Shown here: one piece after another, positions 9,038-59,293 of the stretch
Layout: each line of letters starts with the position of its first letter
Numbering within the stretch: the first letter of the stretch is position 1
From: an uncultured Thermodesulfobacteriota bacterium
Lineage (GTDB): Bacteria; Desulfobacterota; GWC2-55-46; JADFVP01
NCBI GenBank assembly: GCA_964472295.1
Contig: CAYYJQ010000007.1
Coordinates: 302-64,301, forward strand
DNA length: 64,000 nucleotides
Direction: 5' to 3'
Notes under the pieces: generated by a model
Databases searched by the model: none
Told to the model about the DNA's origin: nothing
What the model saw: the letters and a program-made list of their open reading frames with translations, nothing else
Program-made: the position numbers and the translations under genes

Positions 9038-9280
9038 AGGGGCGGGCTTCGCCCGCCAAAAGAAAAAAATTTCCTTACTTTCTTTTAGAAAAAAGAAAGT
9101 TTTTCAATCGTAACGTACAGGCCCTTGTTCTTATGAGACCTGCGCCTTTATAGGCGAAATCTTCACATAAGCGGCTACGTCAAAGAAAACCAATAGGACT
9201 TGGCGCTCAATAGCGGTAGGGTGGGCACTGCCCACCAAACAAAAAAGGCAACAAAAGAGTGAGAAGCGGGCCTTGCCCGC
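9038..9280. repeat. Family-1 mosaic palindromic repeat cluster (modules A', D, A, A') between RND adaptor and pump genes
   Basis: GGGCGGGCTTCGCCCGCC 9038-9056. D hairpin CCTTACTTTCTTTTAGAAAAAAGAAAGT 9072-9099. D tail CAAAGAAAACCAA 9181-9193. GGTGGGCACTGCCCACC 9220-9236. GCGGGCCTTGCCCGC 9266-9280. Confidence 0.8.
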
Positions 9281-12449: not shown

Positions 12450-12600
12450 TCGCGGGCTGGGTTTCGTCCATTATTGGTTTTCTTTGTCTTACTTTCTTTT
12501 TTCAAAAAGAAATTAAGAAAGTCTTTTCATATTCTTCTGTCTGCGAAACCCACCCTCTCCTTCTCTCTTTTTTTGTTTTTTGTGGGCAAAGCCCACGACC
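12450..12600. repeat. Family-1 repeat cluster (A', D, B-fragment, A') between convergent RND pump and apt genes
   Basis: D module TTGGTTTTCTTTGTCTTACTTTCTTTTTTCAAAAAGAAATTAAG 12475-12516. GTGGGCAAAGCCCAC 12582-12596. GCGAAACCCACCC fragment. Confidence 0.75.
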
Positions 12601-14480: not shown

Positions 14481-15062
14481 TCAGAGCGCTAACTTCATGA
14501 CAACAAAGCCGCCTATAATGATGATGACAAGCGCAAGGGTGAGTATATTAAAGTATTTGTCTATGAAAAGACGTATCGGCTCGCCGTACTTCCTGATAAG
14601 GAGGGCGATTATAAAAAACCTCGCGGAACGGCTTACAAAAGAAGCCGCGATGAATACGAAAAAATTAATCCTGAAGGCCCCCGCCGTAATGGTGAAGACC
14701 TTGTAGGGTATGGGAGTAAAACCCGCTATTGCCACTGCCCATGCGTCGTAATGCCTGTAAAGTTCTTGAATATAGGCGTATTTATCCGTAAGTCCGTAAA
14801 GGTCGATTATATGAGTCCCCACGAACTCCATGAAGTAAAGCCCTATGCCATAGCCGAATGCCCCGCCAAGCACGGAGCCCACCGAGGCGATTAGCGCGAA
14901 GTACAGGGAGCGCGCCGGGATGGAAAGGGCAAGGGCAATGAGGAGCACGTCCGGGGGAATGGGAAAAAAAGACGACTCCGCAAAGGCCAGCACAAAAAGG
15001 GCCCATGCCCCGTAAGGAGTGTGCGCCCAGCTAAGAACCCAGTTGTATAAACGCCTCGGCAT
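14481..15062 (-). CDS. YqaA/DedA-type membrane protein (VTT domain)
   Basis: 193-aa polytopic protein with similarity to YqaA family proteins. Confidence 0.65.
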   Translation of the reverse strand: MPRRLYNWVLSWAHTPYGAWALFVLAFAESSFFPIPPDVLLIALALSIPARSLYFALIASVGSVLGGAFGYGIGLYFMEFVGTHIIDLYGLTDKYAYIQELYRHYDAWAVAIAGFTPIPYKVFTITAGAFRINFFVFIAASFVSRSARFFIIALLIRKYGEPIRLFIDKYFNILTLALVIIIIGGFVVMKLAL

Positions 15063-15075
15063 AAAAAAAATCCCC

Positions 15076-15190
15076 CTTATTTTCTTTTAGAAAAAGAAAG
15101 TAAGACAAAGAAAACCAATGCCAGCGGCCCTTGGCCGCTGGATTTTGTAGAGAAGTCTCGCAGGTTGGGTAGAGCAAAGCGAAACCCGAC
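15076..15190. repeat. Family-1 repeat cluster (D-rc, C, B) between yqaA-like and pcm genes
   Basis: CTTATTTTCTTTTAGAAAAAGAAAGTAAGACAAAGAAAACCAA 15076-15118. CCAGCGGCCCTTGGCCGCTGG 15121-15141. GTTGGGTAGAGCAAAGCGAAACCCGAC 15164-15190. Confidence 0.8.
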
Positions 15191-15207
15191 AAAAAAACTC
15201 ACCAGCC

Positions 15208-20731: not shown

Positions 20732-20998
20732 AGAGACCCTTGCATTGGTTTTCATTGTCCTGCTTTTTCCCTGATGTCTAAAGTGGCGTTATTATGGTCC
20801 CCTGTTGGTTTTTTCTTTGACACAGTTTCTTTCTGGTAAGATCTGCCTACCATGCGTCATGACCAAAAAATCCATAAAGACATTGCCACTCGGGAAAAAA
20901 AACTTTCTTTTTTCAAGAGAAAGCAGGAAAATTTCTTGCACTCTTTCCTTAAAGATGTTATTTTTTTATGATTACTAAATCCTGGAGGAAGATGCGCC

Positions 20999-21251: not shown

Positions 21252-21299
21252 TCCAGAATGCATGGGGCGCGTTACAGGATTGACGGCAATCGTCAATTA

Positions 21300-21385
21300 A
21301 GAAAAGTCTGATTAATTCAGACTTTCCAGCAACGCATGGACGCGCCGCCATCTTCGACAACTGTAAGTTATTGAAAATGTGAGGG
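21300..21385 (+). repeat. Family-2 ~90-bp structured repeat, copy 1 (downstream of rpmB terminator)
   Basis: GAAAAGTCTGATTAATTCAGACTTTCC perfect 10-bp-stem hairpin (21301-21327), then CAGCAACGCATGGACGCGCCGCCATCTTCGACAACTGTAAGTTATTGAAAATGTGAGG. ~80 % identical to copy 2. Confidence 0.75.
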
Positions 21386-21461
21386 AAAGGGAACCCGCGT
21401 TTTTCCTTTCCCGTCTCTCCTTAATTCAGGGACGAATCATTCAGAGGTTTCTTAAAATACA

Positions 21462-28040: not shown

Positions 28041-28389
28041 GCGGGCTTTGCCCGCAAAGGATAAGAAAAAAAGAGAGAAAGGGTGTTGCTGGCTGGCTTC
28101 GCCTACAAAAGCCTTGTAGGGTGGGTGGAGCGTCAGCGAGACCCATCACGACAAAAATGGTGGGCAGTCCACCCTACCCGGCTACCCGGCTACGCCTTCA
28201 CGAGTTCACCACCGGCCTCTACCCAGGCGTTGAACCCGCCAAGGAGGGCAGTAAGTAGGGTGGGCACTGCCCACCAAAAAACGGGGGCAACTGGCAGGTT
28301 GGGTCGAACGCGTAGCTAAACCCAACAAATAGGGGGATAAGAGCAAAGCCTGGCCCATACCCCACCAAAAAACGGACTCTGGCCGCTGG
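28041..28389. repeat. Family-1 repeat cluster (A', B, A-degenerate, A, B-like, C-fragment) downstream of moaA
   Basis: GCGGGCTTTGCCCGC 28041-28055. CTTGTAGGGTGGGTGGAGCGTCAGCGAGACCCATC 28113-28147. GGTGGGCAGTCCACCC 28159-28174. GGGTGGGCACTGCCCACC 28258-28276. GGTTGGGTCGAACGCGTAGCTAAACCCAAC 28298-28326. CTCTGGCCGCTGG 28377-28389. Confidence 0.8.
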
Positions 28390-32297: not shown

Positions 32298-32449
32298 GCG
32301 GGCTTGGCCCGCGAAAGGACAAGAAAGAACGGAAAAAGAGTTGACTTTGTGGACTTGGCCCGCAAAAAGACAGAAAGATTTCCTTACTTTCTTTTAGAAA
32401 AAAGAAAGTAAGACAAAGCAAACCAGTACCAGCGGCCTCTGGCCGCTGG
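32298..32449. repeat. Family-1 repeat cluster (A', A', D-rc, C) between convergent helicase and GGDEF genes
   Basis: GCGGGCTTGGCCCGC 32298-32312. GTGGACTTGGCCCGC 32350-32364. CCTTACTTTCTTTTAGAAAAAAGAAAGTAAGACAAAGCAAACCA 32382-32424. CCAGCGGCCTCTGGCCGCTGG 32429-32449. Confidence 0.8.
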
Positions 32450-39093: not shown

Positions 39094-39290
39094 TGGGCAG
39101 TGCCCACCGATTGGTTTTCTTTGTCTTACTTTCTTTTTTCCAAAAGAAAGTAAGAATATCTTTTTTCTTCTGGCGGGCAGTGGCCGCCCTATCCTACCCT
39201 TCTTTCATCTTCCTGTCTTCTGGCGGGCAGTGCCCACCCTTCCTCCCTCCCCCTTCTTTCATCTTCTTTAGTATCAGGCCTTTTCCGCTG
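39094..39290. repeat. Family-1 repeat cluster (A, D, A, A) with ~50-bp tandem duplication between leuD and methyltransferase genes
   Basis: TGGGCAGTGCCCACC 39094-39108. D module 39111-39154. GGCGGGCAGTGGCCGCC 39172-39188. GGCGGGCAGTGCCCACC 39222-39238. Two copies of the unit TCTGGCGGGCAGTG...CTTCTTTCATCTTC. Confidence 0.8.
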
Positions 39291-41431: not shown

Positions 41432-41485
41432 GGGTGGGCTGTGCCCACCAAAATGTAGGATGGGTAAAGCAAAGCGAAACCCATC
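41432..41485. repeat. Family-1 modules (A, B) between leuC and leuA
   Basis: GGGTGGGCTGTGCCCACC 41432-41449. GTAGGATGGGTAAAGCAAAGCGAAACCCATC 41455-41485. Confidence 0.75.
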
Positions 41486-41503
41486 AAATCAGGTAACGCG
41501 GCC

Positions 41504-43039: not shown

Positions 43040-43044
43040 GCTAA

Positions 43045-43132
43045 TTACTTACCTCTTTAAGGACTTAAAAGTCTCGAAAATAGCGCCGCGTCCCTGCGCC
43101 GCTGGAAAGTCTGAGTTTATCAAACTTTCCTC
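43045..43132 (-). repeat. Family-2 repeat, diverged copy 3 in inverted orientation (pssA-leuA intergenic)
   Basis: GCGCCGCGTCCCTGCGCCGCTGGAAAGTCTGAGTTTATCAAACTTTCC aligns with the reverse complement of copy 1 (GGCGGCGCGTCCATGCGTTGCTGGAAAGTCTGAATTAATCAGACTTT). AATTACTTAC matches AATAACTTAC. Confidence 0.55.
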
Positions 43133-48079: not shown

Positions 48080-48251
48080 GGTGGGCAGTGCCCACCATAC
48101 GAGCCTTTTTTGTTGGGTTTCGCTTACGCTCCACCCATCCTACAAGTTTTTCCAGCGGGCGTAGCCAGCTGGCATTAATTTTCTTTGTCTTACTTTCTTT
48201 TTTAAAAGAAAGTAAGGAAATCTTTTTTCTTTTTGGCGGGCGAAGCCCGCC
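48080..48251. repeat. Family-1 most complete composite copy (A, B-rc, C, D, A') between ilvB and ilvD
   Basis: GGTGGGCAGTGCCCACC 48080-48096. GTTGGGTTTCGCTTACGCTCCACCCATCCTACAAG 48112-48146. CCAGCGGGCGTAGCCAGCTGG 48152-48172. TTTTCTTTGTCTTACTTTCTTTTTTAAAAGAAAGTAAG 48178-48215. GGCGGGCGAAGCCCGCC 48235-48251. Confidence 0.85.
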
Positions 48252-50497: not shown

Positions 50498-51202
50498 TTA
50501 AGAACCCCCTGAGGCGCGTCTCTTTAGTTCTGCCTCGGACATTCTGAGATAAAGAGGCGCAACGGCAAGGGGCGTTGTAATGAGGGCGCCTTCTTCAGAG
50601 GCAAGGGCCGCGATATTAGAGGCCCTTATGTGCCAGAGCGGCTCTGGCGCCAGAATGGCCCCTGGCAGGGCCTTCTTCAGAAACCCCCCGTAGACTGAGA
50701 GCCCGCTTCCAAGAAAGACAACTTCCCTGTCCCTCTGTACAAGTTCTTCAAGACGCCTGACGAGTGCCTCCGGCCTAATGGCCGAGGGCCCCATGAGTTC
50801 GCGCATGCGGCCAGATTCAGAGGCATAGATGGCAGTATAGACCTCGGACTTTCTGGCGTCAAGGACTGGACAGATGGCCGGTCCGCAGAAGGGCGCGTTC
50901 ATGGCAAGGGCCTTTAGCGTGGAGACTGCGTACACAGGACGGCCAAGGGGCCAGGCAAGGCCCTTTATGGTGGTTATGCCGATGCGGAGCCCTGTAAATG
51001 AGCCCGGCCCAACTGCCACGGCGTACTGGTCTATATCGGAATGGCAGATGCCGCAGTCCTCAAGGAGGGCGGAGATGCTCCGAAGGAGCCACCTTGCGTG
51101 AGGGCCGGCGTTGCCCACTGTGCGCTCGGCCACAAGGGAGCCATCTTCGGTATCGACGATAGATACGCTCCCGGACCTGGCTGAGGTGTCAATAGCGAGC
51201 AT
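50498..51202 (-). CDS. tsaB: tRNA threonylcarbamoyladenosine biosynthesis protein TsaB
   Basis: MLAIDTSARSGSVSIVD N-terminus of YeaZ/TsaB. Start ATG at 51202. The upstream in-frame extension lies in an 85-bp tandem duplication. Confidence 0.8.
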   Translation of the reverse strand: MLAIDTSARSGSVSIVDTEDGSLVAERTVGNAGPHARWLLRSISALLEDCGICHSDIDQYAVAVGPGSFTGLRIGITTIKGLAWPLGRPVYAVSTLKALAMNAPFCGPAICPVLDARKSEVYTAIYASESGRMRELMGPSAIRPEALVRRLEELVQRDREVVFLGSGLSVYGGFLKKALPGAILAPEPLWHIRASNIAALASEEGALITTPLAVAPLYLRMSEAELKRRASGGS

Positions 51203-51305
51203 AAAGTCTGTTTTTTCACTCTCCACAGCGGTTTTTTTCCGCCCCCCAATGTCCCTTACATGGTTAATGGTCCTCAATGGCGAGCATAAAGTCTGTTTTT
51301 TCACT
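51190..51305. repeat. 85-bp tandem duplication spanning the tsaB ribosome-binding site and start codon
   Basis: CAATAGCGAGCATAAAGTCTGTTTTTTCACT (51190-51220) and CAATGGCGAGCATAAAGTCTGTTTTTTCACT (51275-51305), 30/31 identical. Upstream copy makes a 7-codon mini-ORF (MLAIEDH*). Confidence 0.75.
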
Positions 51306-51430
51306 TTCCGGCCCCTGGTATCTCAGCCCCCGGCCGCACCCGCGCCCCCGGCCTCTACCGCTCCCCCCCACCATTCGCTCCCTTTGCCCCTGACTTGGCC
51401 CCCTTTGGCAACCCTCGACTCCCCCTGCCA
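51300..51430. repeat. C-rich (G-rich on transcribed strand) tract between rseP and tsaB
   Basis: GCCCCCGGCCGCACCCGCGCCCCCGGCC...CTCCCCCCCACC...CCCCCTTTGG. Minus strand carries more than 6 runs of G3-G7. Confidence 0.5.
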
Positions 51431-58021: not shown

Positions 58022-58105
58022 GGAAAGTCTGATTAATTCAGACTTTCCCGCAACACAGGGATGTGTTGCCATTTTCGGCAACTGTAAGTTGCCTGAAATG
58101 TAAGG
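58022..58105 (+). repeat. Family-2 ~90-bp structured repeat, copy 2 (rpsB-tsf intergenic)
   Basis: GGAAAGTCTGATTAATTCAGACTTTCC hairpin. Second perfect hairpin GCAACACA-ggga-TGTGTTGC. Third hairpin GGCAAC-tgtaa-GTTGCC. Confidence 0.75.
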
Positions 58106-58162
58106 TTCCTTTATAAAGATACCGGATTACTGACCCGGCCTCTATAACAGATGAAGTCTTCT

Positions 58163-59110
58163 TTATGAGGCAGGCTCCCCTGCCTTTTCCGCGGGCTCTG
58201 AAGGCTCCGCAACCGGGGCCGCGGCCTCTTCTACCGGCGCTGTGGTCTCTTGTGCCTTATCCTTGTCTGCGGCCTTGCCGGCAGGCTCGGAGGCAGGCTC
58301 TTCTTTATCCACTGGAGACGCCTCGGACGAAGGCGCGGCCTCGGGAGTCTCTACTACCGTTGGACTTGCCTCGGCCACGGCCTCTTCGGCCTCTTTCTCT
58401 TCAGCCGCGCTCTGAAGGCTTGCCTCGTACATGGCCCTGCCCTCCAAGCAGGCATCCGCTATGGATGAAGAAAAGAGTTTTATGGCGCGTATGGCGTCGT
58501 CATTACCGGGTATTATAAGGTCCACCTCGTCAGGGTCGCAGTTTGAGTCAACAATGGCCACAACGGTTATACCAAGTTTGCGGGCCTCTCTTATGGCGAT
58601 GGCCTCTTTCTTCGAGTCCACGACGAACATCACGGAGGGCGGCTCTTTCATGTCGCGCACCCCGCCAAGGTACTTCTCAAGCCTGAGTTTTTCTCTCTCA
58701 AGCATGAGGCGTTCCTTCTTGGTGGTCCCGGTAAACTCCTCGCTCTCTTCGAGTTTATCGAGTTTGTTAAGGCGCGCTATGCTCTTTTTTACAGTGGCGA
58801 AGTTGGTAAGGAATCCGCCTATCCAGCGGTTGTTCACGTAGAACATTCCGCAGCGCCGGGCCTCCTCCTCAATGGATTTATGGGCCTGCTTCTTTGTGCC
58901 CACAAAGAGGACCTTTCCGCCCTTTGCTGTTATGTCCCGTATAAAGTTGTAGGAAGTCTTGAAGAGACGTACGGTCTGCTGAAGGTCAATGATGTAGATG
59001 CCGTTTCTGGCCCCGAAGATATAGGACTTCATCTTGGGGTTCCATCTCCTCGTCTGGTGCCCGAAGTGGACACCGCTCTCGAGGAGCTGTTTCATCGTAA
59101 GGTAAGCCAT
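58163..59110 (-). CDS. rpsB: 30S ribosomal protein S2 with Ala/Glu/Pro-rich C-terminal extension
   Basis: [28 protein letters not shown]-terminus. AGGAGG RBS 5 nt upstream of ATG 59110. ~70-aa low-complexity tail. Confidence 0.9.
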
Positions 59111-59293
59111 GGTATTCCTCCTTTTGCGGTTAAGATCCTCCGCGCCGGTGATGACATGAGCCCGCACATGCGGACACCGCAAAGAAAACGCGGCGCGTGT
59201 GTATTTAATCGTGTATTATTATCACATTATGGAAGGGGCATGCAAGAAGTTTTTTACAAAAAAGGAGGGAGCGCCGCTGAGTCATTGCCTGCC

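Follow-up and report, generated by a model that had tools for sequence, protein, structure and literature searches.

A repeat family of an uncultured Thermodesulfobacteriota bacterium is very probably an IS5-group MITE with five covarying hairpins

The duplication that accompanies Correia elements (CREE/NEMIS, of Neisseria) is TA. For these elements both RNase III cleavage at the terminal repeats and promoters are documented (PMC10969869). BrickBuilt, MITEPgRS and MITE464 of Porphyromonas, and ATR of Neisseria, are non-autonomous elements whose terminal inverted repeats (TIRs) match those of the IS5 family and whose cores are unrelated (PMC4596501). Chunjie, a MITE of Geobacter uraniireducens, measures 178-235 bp, with terminal repeats of 21 bp and duplications of 9 bp (PMC3184786). 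In the IS5-like insertion sequence (IS) ISKpn26 the ends read GGAAGGTGCGAACAAG and GGAAAGTGCGAATAAG, and the duplication is TTAA (PMC10569121).

The repeat described here – found three times in the window (the whole 64-kb stretch of DNA analysed) – is very probably an IS5-group MITE, that is, non-coding mobile DNA with IS5-type ends and an insertion footprint. It is an ordinary kind of element, and the five-hairpin family itself appears to be unnamed; no printed match to its terminal sequence was found in the literature searched. Every test that defines a MITE and that could be run gave a positive result. The copies are short (88-153 bp, plus variants of ~200 bp) and have no coding capacity, containing hairpins only and no ORF. 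They occur in multiple copies, without exception between genes and in either orientation: three in 64 kb, at least ten in three related genomes and at least ~25 more among the metagenome loci listed. The element comes in two sizes, ~151 bp when complete and ~88 bp after an internal deletion, and the family is widely spread among environmental bacteria.

Like Correia elements, the MITE measures ~100-155 bp, exists both complete and in a shorter version with an internal deletion, is intergenic, often appears to be co-transcribed within operons, and has hairpins that are candidates for RNA-level effects. It differs from them in its terminal repeats, its five local hairpins, its 4-bp YTAR duplication and its IS5-type ends; moreover, whereas Correia elements have documented promoters, promoter-like sites were not found in the copies studied here. 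With the Porphyromonas and Neisseria elements it shares TIRs that match IS5-family ISs and a core unrelated to the IS, but those elements have GAGAC-type 12-bp repeats (ISPg1/ISNme1-like) and irregular duplications, whereas here the repeats are 18 bp long and of GGAA type, and the 4-bp YTAR duplications are regular. Chunjie is likewise a delta-proteobacterial MITE that is intergenic or sits in an unbroken operon and has a stable fold; identity with Chunjie was nevertheless rejected (9-bp duplications and 178-235 bp, vs 4 bp and ~151 bp). Since both duplication and TIR lengths differ, the transposase families are different and the two MITEs unrelated.

A first-pass annotation had described three related copies of a ~90-bp unit, and the copies are readily recovered: nhmmer with an HMM of the three returns 21301-21387 (+), 58022-58108 (+) and 43043-43130 (-), each with E ~1e-26, and no fourth match above noise in the 64-kb window. 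A covariance model run over the 64 kb with filters off also finds exactly three copies, and for the 25-nt palindrome pattern the expected number of chance matches is 0. Copies 1 and 2, estimated earlier to be about 80% identical, share 82% identity over 82 nt. The unit itself, however, is longer than had been described. In a palindrome scan of one genome per species, full matches occurred only in three uncultured Thermodesulfobacteriota genome bins, and the homology of copy 1 to those bins runs past 85 bp to a sharp right boundary at 21451, which gives a copy of 151 bp. Palindrome matches in Endozoicomonas and Bacteroidia are lone hairpins with no further similarity and were discarded as probably unrelated.

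Copy 1 (21301-21451, + strand) is a full-length but decayed MITE that can be aligned over its whole length with the copies of 150-153 bp at loci L008, L009, L006, L002 and L014; as a full-length element it scores 2.2e-48 with nhmmer and 141 bits with the covariance model (positions 1-151). It lies between rpmB and ridA, and the contigs recovered for this locus are all from the same organism. The left TIR, GAAAAGTCTGATTAATTC (21301-21318), departs from the family consensus GGAAAGTCTGATTAATTC at one of 18 positions and forms, together with 21310-21327, the 27-bp palindrome of hairpin 1; the right TIR (21434-21451, - strand; reverse complement GAAACCTCTGAATGATTC) has two mismatches to the family right repeat GGAACCTCTGAATAATTC. 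Immediately outside these 18-bp repeats stands TTAA on both sides (21297-21300 and 21452-21455), so the earlier statement that the repeat lacks obvious TIRs or target-site duplications does not hold. Decay is evident in four A-C mismatches and in hairpins 2 and 5, both partly broken: the broken second hairpin had been seen correctly, but the 10-bp stem reported as perfect consists in copy 1 of nine perfect pairs and an A.C mismatch. Folding of this copy gives a z of -2.4 for the top strand and -5.5 for the bottom.

Across the family the full MITE is 150-153 bp long with 18-bp TIRs that start GGAA, the left consensus (GGAAAGTCTGATTAATTC) and the reverse complement of the right (GGAACCTCTGAATAATTC) agreeing at 15 of 18 positions. 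Each TIR is backed directly by an inverted internal copy of itself, making both ends local palindromes (hairpins 1 and 5). Perfect 4-bp direct duplications flank six of seven full-length copies (TTAA, TTAA, TTAG, TTAG, TCAA and ATAG); because TTAG, TCAA and ATAG are non-palindromic, these are target duplications and not extensions of the inverted repeats. A larger comparison drew on related genomes as well as metagenomes and, among the matches listed, comprised 23 independent copies. Perfect duplications were present in 14, and a further five copies match at three of four positions, whereas 20,000 permutations of the flank pairing gave 3.7 perfect duplications on average and never more than 10. 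The perfect duplications comprise TTAA (seven), TTAG (three), CTAA (two), ATAG and TCAA (one each), and 12 of the 14 fit YTAR.

The two remaining window copies belong to the short form, in which a deletion between two GAGG/AAGG repeats has removed hairpin 4 together with the inner arm of hairpin 5. Copy 2 (58022-58109, + strand; 83 bits with the covariance model) is 88 bp long and lies in the rpsB-tsf spacer, antisense to both genes. Hairpins 1-3 are intact and are followed at once by the final bases of the right end (...GTAAGGTTCC); the further hairpins noted earlier in this copy are borne out, there being three perfect hairpins in all (dG -43.0 kcal/mol, z = -7.4). Its flanks, TTTT and TTTA, match at three of four positions, and it shares 92% identity with the short copy on contig L010, at an unrelated locus. 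Copy 3 (43049-43130, - strand; 52.5 bits) is the diverged, inverted copy that had been placed between pssA and leuA. It fills the 91-bp spacer there, in the orientation of the two genes, and resembles the short form; its right end is degraded and its boundary not definable. The short form retains only ~6-8 nt of the right repeat and yet is found at two unrelated loci, a spread that a simple requirement for two repeats does not explain.

Copies of the window's lineage share pairwise identities of 75-88%; activity of the MITE is therefore ancient, and current activity is not demonstrable. The three window copies, all of them fixed in the sampled population, are old and probably immobile: copy 1 is decayed, the right repeat of copy 2 is largely gone, and copy 3 no longer has a right end. 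In a related genome two further copies (L012, 4167-4260 and 4498-4583) bracket a small ORF that by eye is hypC-like: a truncated copy stops just short of its start codon and a diverged copy follows directly after its stop (TAA, then GGAAGGGTTTATTTATTCAGGCCTTCC).

Terminal sequence points to an IS5-group insertion sequence with near-identical ends as the likely partner in trans. Contig L010, from one related metagenome-assembled genome, carries in addition to its short MITE copy an IS end – TTAG followed by GGAAACTCTGATTTATTC – then 52 nt, and then the N-terminus of a transposase (Pfam DUF772, 1.6e-21; NCBIfam transpos_IS5_4, 1.8e-31). This end is identical to the MITE left repeat at 16 of 18 positions. 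The partner IS is a fragment at the end of the contig, and because mobile elements are clustered on this contig, its bin assignment is less secure. (The same 3.4-kb contig – L010, 1-434 and 2871-3430 – also has a downstream ORF that by eye is IS3-family OrfA-like, MKKSRYKETQIVGILREVEAGRQVKDVCREYGISDGTYYNCKSKY....) A homologue search with the 121-aa transposase fragment returned only truncated proteins, ~80% identical and from other samples, and not the full partner. A metagenome scan found the 18-mer IS end at no fewer than 120 loci. Among the loci listed, four complete ISs with that end, checked for ORFs, are 1163-1189 bp long, and three of the four have intact transposases of 318-322 aa; the two transposases scanned score 363-373 bits on transpos_IS5_4 (cut-off 140), and that of L061 is 80% identical to the L010 fragment. 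CTAG or CTAA duplications flank most of ten complete IS pairs (among the matches listed), and a plasmid IS5-family element with 65% protein identity has TTAA on both flanks. Two further candidates, L049 and L046, were rejected as insertion sequences: neither has a long ORF, the MITE ends being paired by chance. Within the 64-kb window no IS5-type transposase or matching IS end was found.

The ends also resemble those of a known IS5-like element: the TIRs start GGAA and match the right end of ISKpn26 (GGAAAGTGCGAATAAG) at 12 of 16 positions, and both have a 4-bp target duplication at YTAR or TTAA (PMC10569121). The MITE differs from the IS5 group, including the environmental elements that end in GGAAACTCTGATTTATTC, in its size (88-153 bp) and in encoding nothing, and its TIRs are duplicated inverted as local palindromes, an arrangement absent from the ISs. 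Because only the terminal 18-20 bp are common to MITE and ISs, the element is of 'type II'. By analogy with what is established for DDE transposases of the IS5 family, an IS5-group IS would supply in trans the enzyme that binds the MITE TIRs, excises the element and reinserts it at YTAR (chiefly TTAA or TTAG), in many cases within an AT-rich loop or spacer; 4 bp of the target would then be duplicated as the staggered cut is repaired.

Further evidence for insertion comes from empty sites. The copy of locus L011 interrupts, exactly at its TTAG loop, a member of the other abundant repeat family of the window: removal of the MITE and one TTAG leaves CTTTCTTTTAGAAAAAGAAAG...GACAAAGAAGACC, which matches window positions 15079-15119 and constitutes an empty site precise to the base. 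At the two window loci with short copies, related lineages lack the element. The rpsB-tsf spacer is 175 bp in the window and identical in contigs from two JGI samples with identical Tsf, but 55, 65, 109 and 216 bp, with the MITE absent, in four related lineages (Tsf 79-86% identical). Likewise, the pssA-leuA spacers of four related lineages (LeuA 84-89% identical) are 0, 13, 63 and 76 bp long and devoid of the MITE. With TIRs, 4-bp duplications, empty sites and an IS5-family partner with near-identical ends, the first-pass suggestion of a MITE stands.

The repeat family that received the L011 insertion is the commoner of the two in the window and presumably the 'first family' of the first-pass annotation. 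It consists of a palindrome, CTTACTTTCTTTTAGAAAAAAGAAAGTAAG, followed by GACAAAGAAAACCA and often by a GC-rich hairpin, and occurs between genes at 9058-9100, 12472-12527, 15060-15141, 20902-20937, 32367-32449, 39109-39164 and 48174-48228; its TTAG or TCAA loop is the MITE target in related genomes (L011, and probably L001). Often adjoining it are two short GC-rich intergenic repeat types, GTAGGGTGGGCACTGCCCACC... and AGGTTGGGTAGAGCAAAGCGAAACCC... (9216-9252, 28255-28291 and 39212-39251; 15162-15193, 41457-41488, 28108-28148 and 48111-48151). Two 36-nt direct repeats, 94% identical and 85 bp apart (TCAATAGCGAGCATAAAGTCTGTTTTTTCACTCTCC), lie at 51189-51309. Intergenic space in the genome from which the window derives is unusually rich in repeats. 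The MITE palindrome, over ~21 nt (AAGTCTGATTAATTCAGACTT), is also present singly in Endozoicomonas and Bacteroidia genomes (L005 2681-2707, L007 3248-3274, L004, L013 and L015), in one case with a T-run after it; these are the lone, probably unrelated hairpins mentioned above.

Comparison of the pssA-leuA junctions suggests a consequence of insertion. In the relative that is closest in sequence the junction reads ...CATACATGA, then GGAATAATAAAAG, then the ATG of leuA; the end of pssA is the same as in the window and the leuA ribosome-binding site overlaps the pssA stop codon. The equivalent position in the window is 91 bp from leuA, and copy 3 has an AGAGG (43052-43056) 12 nt upstream of the leuA ATG: to judge from this arrangement, the GAGG of copy 3 probably replaces the ribosome-binding site displaced by the insertion. 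The copies at rpsB-tsf and pssA-leuA would be co-transcribed with these genes, adding stable hairpins to the mRNAs. That two of the three copies lie next to ribosomal-protein genes had also been pointed out; the proximity is real, but nothing supports a meaning for it; other copies are beside unrelated genes. As to rpsB, its longest ORF (58163-59182, - strand) encodes 339 aa from a TTG start and includes an Ala/Glu/Pro-rich C-terminal tail of ~80 aa; S2 gene calls in relatives are 286-327 aa, so the length of this tail varies by lineage.

The family offers a broad base for analysis of structure. The further metagenome copies, among the loci listed, are 146-201 bp long, have the left palindrome GGAAACTCTGATTTATTCAGAGTTTCC and are flanked by TTAA, TTAG or CTAA duplications. 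An alignment (MAFFT) of 20 distinct copies, with pairwise identities down to ~57-60%, yields a consensus of five consecutive local hairpins: hairpin 1 is the left TIR with its inverted internal copy, hairpins 2-4 form the core, and hairpin 5 – checked by folding the right end of each copy – is the inverted copy with the right TIR. Compensatory double changes are found in 24 of 43 predicted pairs, and the covariation score is 0.363, as against 0.08-0.12 when partners are slid; none of 500 shuffles reaches 0.363. In hairpin 2, for example, GCAACACA/TGTGTTGC is replaced by GCGGCCCA/TGGGCCGC, and in hairpin 3 ATTTT...AAAAT alternates with AAAAT...ATTTT. An intact copy folds with -67.8 kcal/mol (z = -8.8). 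The ~200-bp variants (L104 5025-5225, L087 173-373 and L137 564-760) hold ~50 bp of extra sequence in the loop of hairpin 2 and keep their stems, and the loop of hairpin 1 is in itself a TTAA target. The stems covary strongly when copies are aligned, and the first-pass annotation was right to suspect conserved structure. In a family of DNA palindromes, however, covariation does not by itself point to a function as RNA: when quasipalindromes are corrected by template switching in the course of replication, apparent compensatory changes can result without selection. Three of the five covarying hairpins have no similarity to the TIRs, and a selfish-element model alone does not explain the covariation of all five at ~60% identity.

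If the copies were small structured RNA genes or cis-regulatory RNA modules, transcribed from their own signals and needed at several loci, then strong covariation over five hairpins, with compensation in more than half of the pairs and a score well above the slid controls, would be readily understood, as would the superior folding of intact copies relative to shuffles and the excess of G-T over A-C wobbles on the strand as written (39 to 17, although 10 of the 39 G-T come from a single alignment column). We consider this very unlikely. TIRs, 4-bp duplications and empty sites show that the copies arrived by transposition; a scan found no sigma-70-like promoter and no intrinsic-terminator-like site inside them; and relative to neighboring genes they may be sense, antisense, convergent or divergent, without obvious bias (on crude ORF-based gene calls, the tsf locus being among those miscalled). 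Rfam gave no gathering-level match in the window, nothing relevant on copy 1 at E <= 10 and nothing relevant at E <= 0.5 for five loci with intact copies. The window copies are, furthermore, partly decayed, copy 1 with its mismatches and two broken hairpins in particular. An autonomous small RNA gene, the other option of the first-pass annotation, is disfavored on the same grounds, and a match to an IS terminus – which that annotation had named as telling against its element – was found, the ends matching IS sequence. Two narrower proposals for the palindrome were also rejected. As a promoter, GGCAAC...TTGCC fails for sigma-54, the GG-to-GC spacing being 14 by eye vs 12 in the -24/-12 consensus, and for sigma-70, the scan finding none inside copies. 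As an operator for a dimeric regulator it fails because its arms covary (G-C to C-G between subfamilies) and the sequence is not conserved; the palindrome is, moreover, a terminal repeat plus its inverted copy. A repeat of the IS200/IS605 type, or of the REP/BIME type, moved as a single strand by a tyrosine (Y1) transposase would account for hairpins at or beside both termini and for the failure to see TIRs or duplications in the 85-bp core; but those families have neither target duplications nor TIRs, the MITE has both, and its ends match IS5-family DDE elements. This reading is extremely improbable.

A different question is whether an element that is a MITE by origin has been kept because its hairpin array serves the host or the element as single-stranded nucleic acid. 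The array may act as an mRNA stabilizer or RNase target (both with precedent in Correia and ERIC elements), or as a DNA cruciform or hairpin that aids transposase loading or is a target for insertion. Covariation of all five stems in copies down to ~60% identity is consistent with this, as are the ~200-bp variants that accommodate extra DNA in a loop with stems intact, the TTAA target in the loop of hairpin 1 and the insertion of copies into loops of other palindromes. Against it stand the lack of orientation bias, the decay of individual window copies and the correction of quasipalindromes, which could mimic compensation in the absence of selection. Effects of MITEs via RNase III and RNase E do have precedent (PMC10969869). 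On balance retention for such a function seems rather unlikely, and the specific claim that selection acts on the array as a single-stranded module of RNA or DNA, and that it is no passive by-product, is unlikely too; a selected single-strand function is a minority possibility and not the explanation that we adopt. If true, it would mean that the hairpins are kept across environmental lineages for transcript stabilization, processing or insulation in operons like rpsB-tsf, or alternatively that folded ends are recognized by the transposase, something unusual among DDE elements.

Taken as an IS5-group MITE, the repeat is only partly unusual – in the clean covariation of its five hairpins and in the breadth of the family – and in nothing else. 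For annotation, such copies, in Thermodesulfobacteriota and in other environmental genomes, should be masked as IS5-group MITE and not be called sRNAs, riboswitch-like leaders or regulator binding sites; they are also useful as insertion markers for the tracking of strains and lineages in metagenomes. Two of the copies lie inside essential operons, rpsB-tsf and pssA-leuA, and the apparent replacement of the leuA ribosome-binding site by copy 3 is a small example of MITE-driven rewiring of expression signals. Covariation of five hairpins at ~60% identity, finally, provides a compact test case for telling apart, in mobile DNA, mutation that corrects palindromes and selection that acts on structure.
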